Shown here in pieces: positions 18,239 through 59,334 of a DNA stretch of 64,000 bases. The DNA comes from Octopus vulgaris (lineage: Eukaryota): positions 8,990,001 through 9,054,000 of the forward strand of contig OX597831.1 in the NCBI GenBank assembly GCA_951406725.2, given 5' to 3'. The notes beneath the pieces are model-generated. The model ran no database searches, was not told the DNA's origin, and worked only from the letters and a program-made list of their open reading frames with translations. Positions within the stretch are counted from its first letter, which is position 1, and each line of letters starts with the position of its first letter. A program made the position numbers and the translations under genes.

Positions 18239-21235
18239 TCATGGAGGCTTTCTAGCAACTGCTATTTGGTGCATGAGAGAGTTCGATGCAGCTGCCCTCA
18301 TCTGCCCCTCCTGCCGTGAAGTTGGTTCATCTGGGACACCTGACAGGAAGAGATCCAGCTTCATTTTAAAGACATCTGTATCCACCCCATGCAGGTCTCT
18401 CAGGTTCTTCGGGAGGATATTGAAGAGCTGTGGGCCTCGGAAGCCCAGGCTATCACAGTATCTTGTCCTACATCTTGATGGCAGGTTTGGAGTCCTAGGC
18501 ACCACGCAGTGGCGCCCAGTTCTGGCATTTGCGTAACTCTCGATGCCAAAGTTCAGGACACTTCCCTCCAGGATCTTCCAGATGTATATTATGGCATATC
18601 TTTCCCGCCTACGCTCCAGGGAATATAATTTTAATCTCTTGAGTCTTTCCCAGTAGCTTACATTCTGCATAGAGGCTATCTTCTTTGTGTAGCTTCGTTG
18701 GATCGCCTCAAGTTCTGTGATCAACTTGACACTGGATGGTGACCATAGCTGAGAGCAATAGTCAAAGTGGCTTAGGACAAGTGTCTTCCAGAGGACCATC
18801 ATGGTTTCTTGTTCTCTTGTTCTAAAGGTTCTAAGAATCCATCCAGCCAGCCGTCTACATTTCATTGTCAGTTTAGCAACATGTACATGAAAGGTCGCGT
18901 CATCACTCATGTGAATACCCAGGTCACGCACTGATTGTGCCTCTGGGATTGCAATCCCTCCGGGTCCAGTGTATTCATTGGGTATTGCATTCAGTTTTGC
19001 ATGCTGATAGTATAAAGCTTGAAACTTTCCAGCATTGAACTGCATGCTATTCTTTTCAGCCCACTTGTATATTTCGTCCAGCTCACATTGCAGGTGTTTA
19101 GTGTCCTCAGGGTTCTGTATTGCCTGTGAAACTTTTGTATCATCTGCATAACTTGTGATCGTGGCTCTCTGCGTGGCTGAGGGCATGTCTGAGAGGGCCA
19201 TTATGAACAGTAGTGGTCCCAGAACAGTGCCCTGCGGAACACCGCTCACTATTTGTGTGTTAATGGAGGTGGCCCCATTGGCTACTACCACCTGACTTCT
19301 ATCCTTCAGAAAGTCATGAAGCCATTCTCCAAGTTTTCCAACTATGTTGAGATCACGCAGTTTGTGACATATCATTCCATGATCGACTTTATCAAAGGCC
19401 TTTGCAAAGTCGAGATATATCACTTCCACATTTGAGTGGTTGAGCAGCCGTTTCAGCACCCAGTCATAGTGTTGTAGGAGCTGAGTTAAACAGCTTCTCC
19501 CTGGTCGGAAACCATGTTGGGTGTCGGGCAGCAAGTCATTCTCTTCAAGGAAGGTGATCAGCTTCCTTCTGACTATTCGTTCCATGACCTTGCTGATGTG
19601 TGAGGTCAGAGAGATAGGTCTATAGTTCTTGGCTTCCGCTCTGCTACCTCTTTTATGAATGGGGCATATTTTACCTTCCTTCAGTTTTCCTGGAAGTTTG
19701 CCAGCTGCAAGGAAGCTCTGAAAGAGGAACTGCAGTGGTCTTGCTAGGACTCTCTTACATGCTTTTAGGAGGATTGCCGGGAATCCATCGGGGCCAGTAG
19801 CTGAGTCTGTTTTCATTTCATCTATAGCCTTGGTTACATCGTCTTCATTTATATCGATGTAATCTATCGTCGCCGCCTCTGATTTTATATCTGCAGTGGT
19901 AAAAAAGTCAGTTGGATTGGTGATTTGGAGATGCCCAAGGGGTGGAGTGAAAACACTCTTGAATTGCTCATTCAGTATTTCACTTACCCTCATTGGTTTT
20001 CCTGTAAGTGTGCCATCCTTTTCGAGGAGTGGCCCTATTCTACAGTGCACTGTAGCTGTTTCTTTGGCATACCTGTAGAAAGCTCTGGGGTTAGATTTTA
20101 TGTTTTCTATAGCCCAGGCTTCTTTGTCTGCTCTTTCTTTTTCATGGGAGAGTTGCAGACATTTTTCGATTTCCAACAGTTTTATTTTTAGGCGGGACTT
20201 TTCACTGCTTTCAATCTGTTTGTTTAGGCGATTTGAAAATTTCGTACGCCGTCTCATTAAAATTTTCCTCTCTCTGGGGATTTTGTTCTTGTGTACAGTG
20301 GCCTTTCTCTCTGGGACACATTTGTAGCATATGGCTTGCATTACAGACATGAATTGTTGAAGTTTCACGTCGATGTCTGGCGAGGAGAGACATTCAGGCC
20401 AGTTTTGTTTGAGGATCTCTTTCTCAATTTGTTTCCAGTTTGCCTTATGGTAGTTCAAGCTGGAAAGATTTTGAGGGTTTCTTGTAGGCTGCATGTCCGT
20501 GCTCTCTTTTGGCCCGTACATGGTCAGCTCTACCATGTTGTGATCCGAGAGTAGTGTCGGTGTCACTTTCACATTATGGATGAGATCCATGTCATTTGTG
20601 AAGCAGAGATCCAGTGTGTTACCTGCCCTGGTTGGTTGGAGTATTACCTGCTCCATGTACAGGGTGTTGATGAGGTTCAGGAGGGACCTCGCCTGTCCTC
20701 GTTCACATCTTGTCATTCCTGGGAGAAAAAGGCCCTCGGGCCATCTGACATTGGGCAGATTGAAGTCTCCCATAAGAAGCACACCTATGTGTTGTTCTAA
20801 TGTGGTTAGAATTTCTTCTATTTTTATAAGGCAGTCTTCGAACTTGCCCACATGGCTTGGGGCATCTGGAGGGCGATATGTAGCACACACAACTACATCA
20901 AGTTGCCTAATATGTACAATTAGTGTGTCACACACCGAGTTTGAGTATGACAAGAGGACCTGGGGTGTGAGGTCCTCACGGATGTACATAGCAACACCTC
21001 CATGACTCCTTTCTTTCCTGTCGGTTCGTAGTACAGCATACTGTGGTATGTGTAACTCCGCATCTGCTATGTCCGGTTTCAGGTGCGTTTCTGTAAGTGC
21101 TATGCATAAGGCTTGATTGCATGCAACAAAGTCTCTCAGGAACGGGATCTTTGTCCTGTTACTGAGTGTTTGCAGTCCTCTGATGTTCAGTAGGAGTATC
21201 GAGGTGAGGTGTACGTTGTTGCCGGCGGTGTCCAT
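18239..21235 (-). CDS. LINE ORF2: AP-endonuclease + reverse transcriptase, uninterrupted (~998 aa from first ATG; frame open to ~21358)
   Basis: APE motifs LLNIRGL, ALTETHL, GGVAMY, YRPP, GDFNLP, TLDLCF, LSDH. RT motifs NYRPISLTS, QHGFRPGRSC, YLDFAKAFDKVDH, GVPQGTVLGPLLF, YADD. CR1/L2-like C-terminus LYSLERRRERY...FKMKLDLFL. The track start at 21343 is a GTG; the first ATG is at 21235. Confidence 0.96.
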   Translation of the reverse strand: MDTAGNNVHLTSILLLNIRGLQTLSNRTKIPFLRDFVACNQALCIALTETHLKPDIADAELHIPQYAVLRTDRKERSHGGVAMYIREDLTPQVLLSYSNSVCDTLIVHIRQLDVVVCATYRPPDAPSHVGKFEDCLIKIEEILTTLEQHIGVLLMGDFNLPNVRWPEGLFLPGMTRCERGQARSLLNLINTLYMEQVILQPTRAGNTLDLCFTNDMDLIHNVKVTPTLLSDHNMVELTMYGPKESTDMQPTRNPQNLSSLNYHKANWKQIEKEILKQNWPECLSSPDIDVKLQQFMSVMQAICYKCVPERKATVHKNKIPRERKILMRRRTKFSNRLNKQIESSEKSRLKIKLLEIEKCLQLSHEKERADKEAWAIENIKSNPRAFYRYAKETATVHCRIGPLLEKDGTLTGKPMRVSEILNEQFKSVFTPPLGHLQITNPTDFFTTADIKSEAATIDYIDINEDDVTKAIDEMKTDSATGPDGFPAILLKACKRVLARPLQFLFQSFLAAGKLPGKLKEGKICPIHKRGSRAEAKNYRPISLTSHISKVMERIVRRKLITFLEENDLLPDTQHGFRPGRSCLTQLLQHYDWVLKRLLNHSNVEVIYLDFAKAFDKVDHGMICHKLRDLNIVGKLGEWLHDFLKDRSQVVVANGATSINTQIVSGVPQGTVLGPLLFIMALSDMPSATQRATITSYADDTKVSQAIQNPEDTKHLQCELDEIYKWAEKNSMQFNAGKFQALYYQHAKLNAIPNEYTGPGGIAIPEAQSVRDLGIHMSDDATFHVHVAKLTMKCRRLAGWILRTFRTREQETMMVLWKTLVLSHFDYCSQLWSPSSVKLITELEAIQRSYTKKIASMQNVSYWERLKRLKLYSLERRRERYAIIYIWKILEGSVLNFGIESYANARTGRHCVVPRTPNLPSRCRTRYCDSLGFRGPQLFNILPKNLRDLHGVDTDVFKMKLDLFLSGVPDEPTSRQEGQMRAAASNSLMHQIAVARKPP

Positions 21236-22098
21236 CCTGTTTCTGTTTGCTGTGGTGGTCTGGTATATAGTGGGTAGTCCCACCTGCGGGCTTGGGTTTG
21301 ATGAAGCCAGGTCAGCTGCTGTACAATCTTTTGTGCCATGCACAAAAAAGATTGTTGCTCAGCAACTGCTCTTTCGACAACATCATGTTGGCTGTTTGTG
21401 GCGCGCACAACATCTGCGTACCTCCGCTTTGGGGCAGGTGGTGCGTGGTCCATCCCTTTTTTTTGTGTTGATGGTTTGTCCATCTGCCTCGTGTCTCTGT
21501 GGCAGGGTCCCCGATGTGCAAAGCGGCAGCCTGCACCTTCCTTTCCATGCCAGCAGGAACCTCTCAGGTAGAACATACACACCCGTGTGCGCTGTTTGGT
21601 TCCATCCTTTGCGGATCCACTTCTATTTCTGGTTGTTTCACTCTTTGGTCCTGCTTGAGCTTTTTCTTTTCCTTTAGCTCTTCCAGTCCTTCTTTTAGTT
21701 CTACTTCCTCCCTCTACCTCTTCACCGGGTTCTCCGTCTCCATGGCCCTTGCTGCCGGTTGGAGAACTTGCACCTGGGTTCACTTCCCGGGCAGGTTTCT
21801 CATTCAAAACCTCCTCCCGGGCGTCCACCAGGTGGGGGTGACTTCTTTCATCGTTTCCATTCTTGCCATCTTTGCTCCGCTCGTTCTCAAAGATGGCATC
21901 AAGTGCGCCAATGTGCGACCGTACAAGCGCATATGAGCGCACGAATTCCTGTCTCTTTCGCTCCATCTGAGCCGCTGTCCTCTTGTAGCCTCTGCTCTTC
22001 AGCGCAGCCGCAATCACCTCCCTAGGGCTATCTCCGCCGGCGCACTCCCATGCTCGTACGAATAAATCCAGCTCGTCACGTCTCCATGCTCTGGACAT
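21187..22098 (-). CDS. LINE ORF1 (303 aa): N-terminal Myb/SANT-like (trihelix) domain, basic disordered linker, CCCH zinc finger
   Basis: N-terminus WRRDELDLFVRAW...IAAALKSRGYKRTAAQMERKRQEFVRSY resembles Myb/SANT-like DNA-binding domains (W..E...L...W...IA..L...GY.RT..Q...K...L...Y). CMFYLRGSCWHGKEGAGCRFAH = C-x7-C-x8-C-x3-H. Lies directly upstream of and overlaps ORF2. Confidence 0.85.
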   Translation of the reverse strand: MSRAWRRDELDLFVRAWECAGGDSPREVIAAALKSRGYKRTAAQMERKRQEFVRSYALVRSHIGALDAIFENERSKDGKNGNDERSHPHLVDAREEVLNEKPAREVNPGASSPTGSKGHGDGEPGEEVEGGSRTKRRTGRAKGKEKAQAGPKSETTRNRSGSAKDGTKQRTRVCMFYLRGSCWHGKEGAGCRFAHRGPCHRDTRQMDKPSTQKKGMDHAPPAPKRRYADVVRATNSQHDVVERAVAEQQSFLCMAQKIVQQLTWLHQTQARRWDYPLYTRPPQQTETGWTPPATTYTSPRYSY

Positions 22099-22149
22099 GC
22101 TGGATAATCCGTCTATCCGTTTATCTATCTAATTATGTTCGAGAGAAGA

Positions 22150-23310
22150 CAGGAAGATATTAAGGCTAATTAGAAGATAGAGTACTTGAAAAAGAAATAG
22201 TAACAATATTAAAGTTTGTGTAAAAACGTTATTTGGGTAAAAACGTTATTTAATCTTAAGGCTAATTAGGGGATAGAGTATCTGAAAATGTATTAGCAAT
22301 ATTAATATTATATTAGAGTGTGGATAAAAACGTTGTTTAATCTTAAGGCTAATTAGGAGATAGAGTATCTGAAAATATATTAGCAATATTAATATTATAT
22401 TAGAGTGTGGGTAAAAAAACGTTATTTAATCTTAAGGCTAATTTGGAGATAGAGTATCTGAAAATATATTAGCAATATTAATATTATATTAGAGTGTGGG
22501 TAATATTAAACGTTATTTAATTTAATCTTAAGGCTAATTAGAAGACGGAGTATCTGAAAAATTATATATACAATATTAAGCAATATTAACCGTTATTTAA
22601 TTTAATCTTAAGGCTAATTAGACGTTATTAATATTAAACGTTATTTAATTTAATCTTAAGGCTAATTAGAAGATAGAGTATCTGAAAATATATTAGCAAT
22701 ATTAATATTATATTAGAGTGTGGATAAAAACGTTATTTAATCTTAAGGCTAATCAGGAGATAGAGTATCTGAAAATATATTAGCAATGTTAATATTATAT
22801 TAGAGTGTGGGTAATATTAAACGTTATTTAATTTAATCTTAAGGCTAATTAGAAGATAGAGTATCTGAAGAATTATTAACAATATTAAAACAATATTAAA
22901 CGTTATTTAATTTAATCTTAAGGCTAATTAACAGTAATTATTAACAATATTAAACAATGTTAAACGTTATTTAATTTAATCCTAAGGCTAATTAACAATA
23001 ATTATTAACAATATTAAACGTTATTTAATTTAATCCTAAGGCTAATTAGACGTTTTTAATATTAAACGTTATTTAATTTAATCTTAAGGCTAATTAGAAG
23101 ATAGAGTATCTGAAAAATTATTAACAATATTAAAACAATATTAAACGTTATTTAATTTAATCTTAAGGCTAATTAACAATAATTATTAACAATATTAAAC
23201 AATATTAAACGTTATTTAATTTAATCCTAAGGCTAATTTGACGGTATCAATATTAAACGTTATTTAATTTAATCTTAAGGCTAATTAGAAGATAGAGTAT
23301 CTGGAAAATT
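22150..23310 (-). repeat. Modular AT-rich tandem array in the LINE 5' region (16 copies of a conserved core, units ~48-96 bp)
   Basis: Core (a)acgttatttaa(tttaa)tcYtaaggctaat recurs 16 times (the first copy is partial), with optional modules agatagagtatctgaaaa, tattagagtgtgg and aacaatatt. Confidence 0.92.
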
Positions 23311-56430: not shown

Positions 56431-56842
56431 TTTTACTCTTTTACTCTTTCACTTGTTTCAGTCATTTGACTGCGGCTATGCTGGAGCACCGCCTTTAGTC
56501 GAGCAAATCGACCACAGGACTTATTCTTTGTAAGCCCAGTACTTATTCTATCGGTTGCTTTTGCCGAACCGCTAAATGACGGCGACGTAAACACACCAGT
56601 ATCGGTTGTCAAGCAATGCTAGGGGGACAAACACAGACACACAAACATACACACACACATATATATATATACATATATACGACGGACTTCTTTCAGTTTC
56701 CGTCTACCAAATCCACTCACAAGGCTTTGGTCGGCCCGAGGCTATAGTAGAAGACACTTGCCCAAGAGGCCACGCAGTGGGACTGAACCCGGAACCATGT
56801 GGCTGGTAAGCAAGCTACTTACCACACAGCCATTCCTGCGTC
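56431..56842 (-). mobile_element. SINE family A (full length)
   Basis: Same consensus as the other copies. Confidence 0.92.
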
Positions 56843-57777: not shown

Positions 57778-58004
57778 GGTATATATATATATTATGTGAA
57801 ATAGAAAGATGAATAATCTTGTAGTAGATTAATCAAAAGTTTAACCGATACCTTAGTAGCAAAAATCACAGCAGTAAAACAGCACGGTTGGAGGTACAAC
57901 CATATGGTGTTGCAACCGTGCGTTGGTGCGGATAATTGAAATTAGAACATTATTGGTGAATTGAAGAAATGGAGCTGAACGCAGATTGAACAGAAATCGT
58001 TTTA

Positions 58005-58093
58005 TTTCATTCTACACGTGTTTCGAAAGGCACAAATTACCAAAATCCGATGGAATAATGGGACCATATTGTGTCTTTCTCTTCAGGAAGAAA
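58005..58093 (-). ncRNA. Type I hammerhead ribozyme (intact)
   Basis: tttcttc-CUGAAGA-gaaagacacaa...ttgtgcctttc-GAAAC-acgt-GUA-gaatgaaa. Confidence 0.82.
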
Positions 58094-58858
58094 ATAGGAA
58101 ATCCGTTGGAAAAACAAAAACAGAACAGAGGCGGAGCAAAAACAAATCGAACTATGCTCCTAAGAGCCCATGGCGAAACTGTTTATCAGTGTATGTTGAG
58201 AACCGGTGGCTGAAGAATTCAACGGGTCAGGCATCGGTCAATCATGTGGGTGAGGGGGCGTAGATGTTCTTTGTGACCGAGAATAAAGTTCTGACTATTT
58301 AAGGAATATTGGATGTTTTATAAGGGGCGAGAAAAAATCTACTTAGAGACGTGTGTGTGTGTATACTGTTCTATATACGTGTGTGTTGGCGTAGGGGTAG
58401 AAAACATTTTTTGTGTACGTGTGTGCGTTTGATCGTTCGGCTGTCAGTGGCTACTGCCGTGATGACCGTTGGGTGGCAGAAAAAAAATATACATCATGTT
58501 TTATGTGTGTGTGTGTTCTCATCTAAACCTGCCTTGTCAAGGAAACCCCCCGCTGTGAAAAAAACCAAGCCCCGTTTGTCTTACAGGAGTAATTCCCCTT
58601 GCAGTGGTTAATCGTAGATATCTTAAAGGCTATTTCAGAATTTGTTACCAAGGGCTATGGGTGCCGGTATTATTTATAAACGCTATTTAAAAGCCCCCTC
58701 ACCCACATGATTGACCGATGCCTGACCCGTTGAATTCTTCAGCCACCGGTTCTCAACATACACTGATAAACAGTTTCGCCATGGGCTCTTAGGAGCATAG
58801 TTCGATTTGTTTTTGCTCCGCCTCTGTTCTGTTTTTGTTTTTCCAACGGATTTCCTAT

Positions 58859-58945
58859 TTTCTTCCTGAAGAGAAAGACACAATATGGTCCCATTATTCC
58901 ATCGGATTTTGGTAATTTGTGCCTTTCGAAACACGTAGAATGAAA
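58859..58945 (+). ncRNA. Inverted second copy of the hammerhead (2-nt deletion in helix III)
   Basis: Same as 58005-58093 but reads GAAAC-ac-GUA. Confidence 0.72.
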
Positions 58946-58998
58946 TAAAACGATTTCTGTTCAATCTGCGTTCAGCTCCATTTCTTCAATTCACCAAT

Positions 58999-59069
<71 letters not shown>

Positions 59070-59099: not shown

Positions 59100-59297
59100 T
59101 GTTTTCTGCGTGTTTGTTCTTCGTGTCTGTGTTTTTCCCCCCATCACCACCACCATTGTTTGCCAATCGATGTTCATGTATTTAAATGACCGATAGTATA
59201 AATACTAGGCTCACAAAGAATAAGTCCTGGGATCGATTTACTCGTCTATAAGCGGTGCTCCAGCATGGTCGCAGTCAAATAACTGAAACAAATAAAA

Positions 59298-59300
<3 letters not shown>
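59100..59300 (+). mobile_element. SINE family A, 3' part
   Basis: Tail gcggtgctccagcatggtcgcagtcaaataactgaaac. Confidence 0.8.

Positions 59301-59334
<34 letters not shown>

Follow-up and report, generated by a model that had tools for sequence, protein, structure and literature searches.

Penelope-like elements (PLEs) are already described as leaving inverted, 5′-truncated copies with a tail at one end and a bias toward (TA)n targets, and how they make tandem and inverted insertions has been named an open question (PMC8557442). A linker zinc finger has been proposed to direct the (TA)n targeting. For an anole PLE, the protein, a predicted dimer, has been shown in vitro to cut both strands and to extend them; its reverse transcription begins at two RNA positions flanking the tail, and ribozyme cleavage is dispensable in vitro (PMC11167929). 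The octopus insertion analyzed here, which lies in a 64,000-nucleotide stretch of Octopus vulgaris DNA (the window), has a foldback layout that is known; what its family adds is a strict pairing of one long with one short end together with concordance of alleles between the arms, a ~155-nt tail, and (TA)n targeting retained in spite of a missing linker finger. In the literature searched, which covered papers outside subscription, we found neither such a pairing count with allele concordance nor a ~155-nt tail nor finger-less (TA)n targeting.

The 1.2-kb foldback (57792-59000) is framed by a 14-bp target-site duplication, of which the left copy (57778..57791, plus strand) lies inside a (TA)n array, carries a GG interruption as a mark, and is identical to the right copy (59001..59014, plus strand), which is followed again by (TA)n. 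The element unit is numbered from its 3′ end, with unit position 1 at window position 57792. The long arm (57792..58695, minus strand) is the 3′-terminal 904 bp of an autonomous element and comprises the end of its ORF, the 3′ UTR, a hammerhead, and the tail; it maps to unit positions 1-904 of 3,622 bp, is 99-100% identical to 39 other best copies over query positions 1-904, and ends on the outside at what is called here the long end, or site A. Its outermost 158 bp (57792..57949, minus strand) form the tail, which runs between the fixed end sites designated A and B and holds a hairpin. Inward of this left extension lie the left inverted-repeat arm of 310 bp (57950-58259, minus strand), which pairs with 58693-59000, and a 433-bp spacer (58260..58692, minus strand), which is the 3′ UTR of the parent element and is unpaired in the foldback. 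The last three codons and the stop of the parent's 895-aa ORF occupy 58683..58694 (minus strand) and are identical to the ORF end at locus L047. The short inverted arm (58693..59000, plus strand) is 308 bp long, covers unit positions 468 to 159, and has the short end, or site B, on its outside; the two meet head to head at a junction with 3 nt of microhomology (58693..58695).

The repeat arms of 310 and 308 bp differ by one 2-nt gap only, and over an ungapped core of 244 nt their complementarity is 100%. Exact matches to a 26-mer taken from the arm number 1,197 genome-wide versus 0 for its reversed control, and the inverted repeat, as a near-perfect repeat of 310 bp and by this count, exceeds what chance would give. 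A preliminary description of this stretch had recognized near-identical inverted arms of ~310 bp, a left extension of ~160 bp, (TA)n on either side, and the lack of a real ORF, and all of these are confirmed, no stop-to-stop frame of more than 100 aa being present in the foldback. The same description was right about the size of the spacer (~430 bp) but not about its being non-coding, as it holds the last three codons and the stop of the parent's ORF besides the 3′ UTR. Elsewhere in the window, a common short repeat occurs on either side of the insertion, at 56442-56555 and 59189-59302, in two oppositely oriented copies that are 86% complementary, lie 2.6 kb apart, and are probably unrelated SINE ends. 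An apparently intact LINE lies at 18239-22128 on the minus strand, with a 1,039-aa frame, which we take to carry endonuclease and RT motifs, and upstream of it a 313-aa frame, presumably with a CCCH-like motif; an AT-rich minisatellite with nested periods of 16, 64, 89, and 245 bp follows at 22215-23294. The long ORFs of the window revealed no host gene.

The origin of the insertion is apparent from its relatives. In a search with the whole foldback, the 39 other best copies all match bases 1-904 only, stopping at the junction, and 29 of the 29 copies inspected run past that point into one common sequence, the ORF of the parent; a 29-mer across the foldback junction has a single exact match in the 2.8-Gb genome. 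The parent is a tandemly occurring unit of 3,622 bp. Its 895-aa ORF is uninterrupted in seven fetched loci and has its start at no fewer than 41 places in the genome, and its family includes tandem and partially tandem copies that form pseudo-LTRs, truncation at the 5′ side, and an inverted 5′ copy. Contigs of sequencing runs not recorded as RNA span the unit but say nothing on transcript ends, strand, or level, and among the contigs listed for four other runs none crosses the foldback junction, a result that carries no weight. The parent is a young autonomous PLE, and the foldback is one 5′-truncated head-to-head insertion of it and not a family, because its junction is unique and the other copies continue into the parent. 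The Penelope-like origin that had been suspected from the window alone is borne out by this parent, its ORF, and its telomerase-like RT, as is the view of a young, ribozyme-bearing element with an inverted end; the further genomic copies and the linked PLE ORF that the preliminary description had named as checks both exist, with copies in tandem 3,622 bp apart.

RT motifs are present in the single 895-aa ORF, and the nine best matches to the predicted fold of its protein (mean pLDDT 75) are telomerase RTs, with a best E of 2.6e-9. Pfam found no domain in this ORF, nor did a sequence-profile search against solved structures return a match. At locus L046 (4699-6960, minus strand), a different PLE ORF of 753 aa, with Pfam RVT_1 and GIY-YIG, adjoins one copy of the parent family, and its comparison with the 895-aa ORF is uninformative (E 0.045). 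A C-terminal VY..YVG..R..NH..E..N pattern can be aligned between the 895-aa protein and 18 homologues, and residues 774-887 of the predicted structure form a folded domain; one homologue matches GIY-YIG in Pfam at E 0.001, the 895-aa protein itself having no direct Pfam or fold-search match to GIY-YIG, and the assignment of a putative GIY-YIG endonuclease rests on these motifs and homologues. Further motifs are RWL at residue 37, the third residue of which also varies in homologues, and DKT at 122; CCHH is absent, and CxxC and CxH stand beside the E and N of the putative endonuclease. The CxCX5C linker zinc finger is absent from both the parent family and a sister family, whereas 68 of the full-length homologues, out of 72 examined, seem to carry a CxCX5C-like motif, as a pattern not tied to position. 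Between the RT and the endonuclease, residues 485-559 and 632-765 (approximately) are disordered inserts rich in Ser, Asn, and Gly, across which the frame is kept open.

The sister PLE family just mentioned, with 3,304 candidates at a first look (L093:1738-1996, L165-L176), is ~80% alike in the terminal repeat and 44-66% alike in the C-terminal part of the protein. It has the same hammerhead core and end sites, and its inverted arms start at the same inner site in eight of ten opposite-strand matches. The tail hairpin between A and B has 13 pairs, is 100% paired with one two-sided change, and is kept in both families; it may be the protein's handle.

As to the ribozyme, the whole window was scanned on either strand for hammerhead cores with a closing helix II, which yielded exactly two matches, with CUGAAGA at 58086 (minus strand) and at 58866 (plus strand), one per arm. 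The preliminary description had placed a type I hammerhead with an 11-bp helix II and GAAAC-acgt-GUA in each arm. The GAAAC-acgt-GUA stands for the left arm, where the motif is complete (58004..58095, minus strand) and shows the type I pattern of CUGANGA core, GAAA, NUH, and helices I-III, with a palindromic helix III and a predicted cut between 58013 and 58012. It fails for the right arm (58857..58946, plus strand), where 2 nt of GAAAC-acgt-GUA are missing and the motif is defective and probably impaired: its shortened helix III encloses a loop of 2 nt, and the self-duplex is predicted at -2.3 versus -10.3 kcal/mol for the left. Instead of a continuous 11 bp, helix II has 5 bp on each side of one A-C mismatch and is capped by a loop of 33 nt. 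For each motif, the minimum-energy fold of the monomer is not the hammerhead, and the predicted fold of the whole insertion RNA places the two inside the long duplex, so that the earlier idea of self-cleaving transcripts from either strand is weakened by the damaged right motif and by this duplex alike. The scan with Rfam hammerhead models that had been suggested as a check returned microsatellite noise and no hammerhead match. Between the parent and the sister family the core is invariant, and helices I and II keep their pairing with one two-sided change each, which is modest support because the six alignment rows represent two lineages only.

The right-arm variant with the 2-nt deletion (58930-58937) has eight exact matches genome-wide, and loci L048, L126, and L127 share the deletion. 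It is the commonest deletion outside homopolymers, at 4/196 arm alignments with some loci counted twice, and in the four pairs seen it sits in one arm only, which implies that it arose repeatedly, during or after copying. The idea of a ligation scar from a circular RNA template was rejected, substitutions at positions 222-224 numbering 3 against ~1.4 expected and thus not clearly exceeding background, and slippage on a dinucleotide pair explaining the deletion equally well. A run-off of the cDNA at the ribozyme cut, hinted at by three arms of an earlier selected sample, was likewise given up, since in a position-ordered sample two of 55 inner ends fall at the cut (p 0.28). In the explanation favored below, the hammerhead travels as a passenger with the terminal repeat.

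For the position-ordered sample, the 1,197 matches of the 26-mer were taken in positional order up to the 100th; these all lie on contig C1, form 62 clusters, and were fetched as 63 loci. Arm ends were classed as site A (up to unit position 20) or site B (150-173), limits that were set after the earlier, similarity-selected sample. All 47 two-armed insertions join one long and one short end, with no long-long and no short-short pair among them. Their site A ends lie at position 1-3 in 46 cases and at 18 in one, and their site B ends at 152-164, with one at 172; the sites are thus ~155 nt apart, and the tail is present at one end in 47/47. Of the 62 clusters, 15 fell outside the two-armed class, most of them being one-armed, and by locus a single classed arm was found in 16/63 (ten A, six B), the second arm at L140 running beyond the fetched stretch. 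Outer ends abut (TA)n in 109/110 cases, the exception being an internal tandem joint. Two exceptions to the end sites come from the earlier selected sample, in which an inverted arm at L045 ended at unit position 460 and a direct arm at L051 began at 71. The occurrence of many short-short pairs, suggested by a count of 335 arms spanning site B, was discarded, none being present in the direct sample; sequence variants there are the probable cause of the low count of 335.

The two arms of an insertion are closely related to each other. They differ at 0.26% of 9,561 sites versus 1.47% between insertions, and at 19 recurrent polymorphic sites their alleles agree in 206 of 207 comparisons, where 83 disagreements are expected. 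Arm lengths differ in every insertion. Of the 42 pairs of abutting arms, 28 have the longer reach on the B side and 11 on the A side, three have both arms ending together, and neither arm contains the other in 31; the inner ends are more than 12 nt apart in 35 and within 5 nt in five, the latter against a permutation mean of 0.62 (p 3e-4). In nine of the 42 the A arm stops before site B, so that no sequence is common to both arms, and in 28 each arm holds sequence absent from its partner. Inner ends pile up at unit positions 388-390 (window ~58179-58181), with 7/55 and a scan p of 0.002, and at 310-314 (window ~58101-58105), just upstream of helix I, with 6/55, the null model being rough and paired ends not independent of each other. 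The pile-up at 388-390 may mark a transcription start or the 5′ end of the RNA, and the Penelope of D. virilis is described as starting inside its own terminal repeat (PMC2377424). At loci L042, L124, L141, L144, and L069 the joints are complex, with several short templated element pieces between the arms, which suggests repeated template switching during repair.

In the model favored here, to which we assign a probability of about 0.8, the foldback is a 5′-truncated head-to-head PLE insertion, likely with both nicked (TA)n strands priming at two fixed RNA sites. The endonuclease would nick the two strands of the (TA)n target ~14 nt apart, following which one 3′ end would prime reverse transcription at site A, giving in the present case a cDNA of 904 nt, and the other would prime at site B, giving one of 308 nt; both enzymes would stop early, and the cDNA ends would be joined via the 3-nt microhomology and then repaired. 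That a protein dimer held a single RNA and that both cDNAs were copied from it appears reasonably probable, the coincident inner ends suggesting a single RNA, short of proof. That only five of 42 pairs have such ends weighs against this best explanation, and the shared alleles point to one source element and not to one RNA molecule; later gene conversion between the arms would look alike. More generally, we lean slightly toward a scheme in which PLEs integrate by obligatory paired priming, in which a dimer grips a single RNA at two fixed sites and the two cut strands take one site each; the tail at one end only, the inverted 5′ copies, and the palindromic joints would then have a common explanation. 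With the anole enzyme in vitro, the two strands showed no difference in start site (PMC11167929), and strict pairing is therefore not predicted by the in vitro data alone. The present copy is dead on arrival, a foldback shape without demonstrated function.

An alternative that has to be considered, although we hold it to be unlikely, is that the two primings took place on separate RNAs of one source copy or that two successive insertions entered one array. The mostly unrelated inner ends, differing by more than 12 nt in 35/42 pairs, are what this would give, and a cell that expresses a single source copy would also yield shared alleles. However, independent events provide no reason for the pairing of long with short in 47/47, and they leave unexplained both the joints without (TA)n between the arms and the excess of coincident inner ends.

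Considerably less probable is a snap-back mechanism, in which a single cDNA or antisense RNA folds, self-primes, and thereby makes the inverted arm. Such a mechanism has been proposed for rotifer PLEs, palindromic junctions being described in Adineta PLEs (PMC3846280), and it is in keeping with the shared inner-end position in five of the 42 pairs and with the nesting of the short arm in the long arm at the window locus. In the wider sample, by contrast, a B arm that reaches further (28/42) or ends together with its partner (3/42) cannot be a shorter nested copy, and snap-back is contradicted by the nine pairs whose arms share no sequence, by the 28 in which each arm has sequence missing from the other, and by two outer ends that are both fixed and abut (TA)n (109/110).

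The preliminary description had favored a non-autonomous, ribozyme-bearing retroelement, that is, a foldback or retrozyme family moving as a 1.2-kb unit, as would suit an insertion that has no ORF of its own and hammerhead motifs on both strands, retrozymes being PLE derivatives according to bioRxiv 10.64898/2026.07.22.740005. That claim does not survive the finding of the junction once in 2.8 Gb, with 39/39 other best copies stopping at it and 29/29 inspected continuing into the parent ORF, nor the lack of tandem monomers, the repeat unit being the 3,622-bp coding element, nor arm lengths that vary from insertion to insertion, and such a family now seems highly improbable. Least credible of all is an assembly artefact from a read folded back on itself, since, although tandem and inverted PLE loci trouble assemblers (PMC8557442), the 14-bp target duplication has its unique mark, the arms differ by 2 nt, and the unequal outer ends lie at family-wide fixed sites, with 47 like structures.

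Taken by itself, the insertion is an unremarkable dead copy, and the interest lies in the family. About a thousand young ends provide a hard rule, one long and one short from the same source, for biochemical models, in an element that has an intact ORF and two start sites so widely spaced that they are easily distinguished. The family also offers a natural test of the role proposed for the linker zinc finger in (TA)n targeting, which persists here in the absence of the finger. If the model is true, paired priming is seen here with a tail four-fold longer than in the literature found, described PLEs having 30-40 nt and the octopus family ~155 nt.

In LINE-1 twin priming, both target strands prime, the 5′ part of the element becomes inverted, and the joint carries microhomology. 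The octopus PLE differs from this in that the second priming site is fixed and that the two cDNAs often copy the same stretch of RNA, producing a true inverted repeat. Closer in mechanism is Poseidon of Anolis carolinensis (PAc), which likewise has two RT start sites bounding the tail, an AT-rich target, cutting and extension of both strands, and a hammerhead upstream of the start sites; its start sites, however, lie inside the ORF, whereas those of the octopus element are ~155 nt apart and before the start codon, and no difference between strands was seen in vitro, whereas in the octopus genome each arm uses one site (PMC11167929).

Two hammerheads on opposite strands, 100-700 bp apart, have been ascribed to truncated PLEs in Schistosoma, where the minimal hammerheads have a palindromic helix III of the dimer type, as in the octopus, and cleave weakly in vitro (PMC4209133). 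The octopus hammerhead differs from these by its longer helix II and loop, and in the octopus the parent and the joints are resolved. Animal non-LTR retrozymes resemble the foldback in their hammerhead, their origin from a PLE terminal repeat, and their lack of an ORF in the copy (bioRxiv 10.64898/2026.07.22.740005), but the foldback has no tandem monomers and no family of its own, being a one-off fragment of a coding element.

By its motifs, the parent comes nearest to the Hydra clade of PLEs with a C-terminal endonuclease (EN+), as described in PMC8557442, sharing with it the RW motif, given as RWK for the clade, the DKT motif, the absence of CCHH, the CxxC and CxH, the insertion into (TA)n, and the hammerhead in the terminal repeat; Penelope-13_HM of that clade is listed with a 5′-truncated inverted copy and a hammerhead on both strands, which is the layout of the foldback. 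The clade elements are smaller than 3 kb, compared with 3.6 kb and 895 aa for the octopus parent, which also has two disordered inserts (485-559 and 632-765, approximately) and lacks the CxCX5C linker (PMC8557442). These inserts resemble the Asn-rich inserts carried by Adineta PLEs (PMC3846280). Hydra-1_Obim, at 2,507 bp, differs from the octopus parent in length and in its hammerhead, loop II of the parent having 33 nt. On its sequence motifs, the parent is therefore filed here as Hydra-like and not as a member of the clade.
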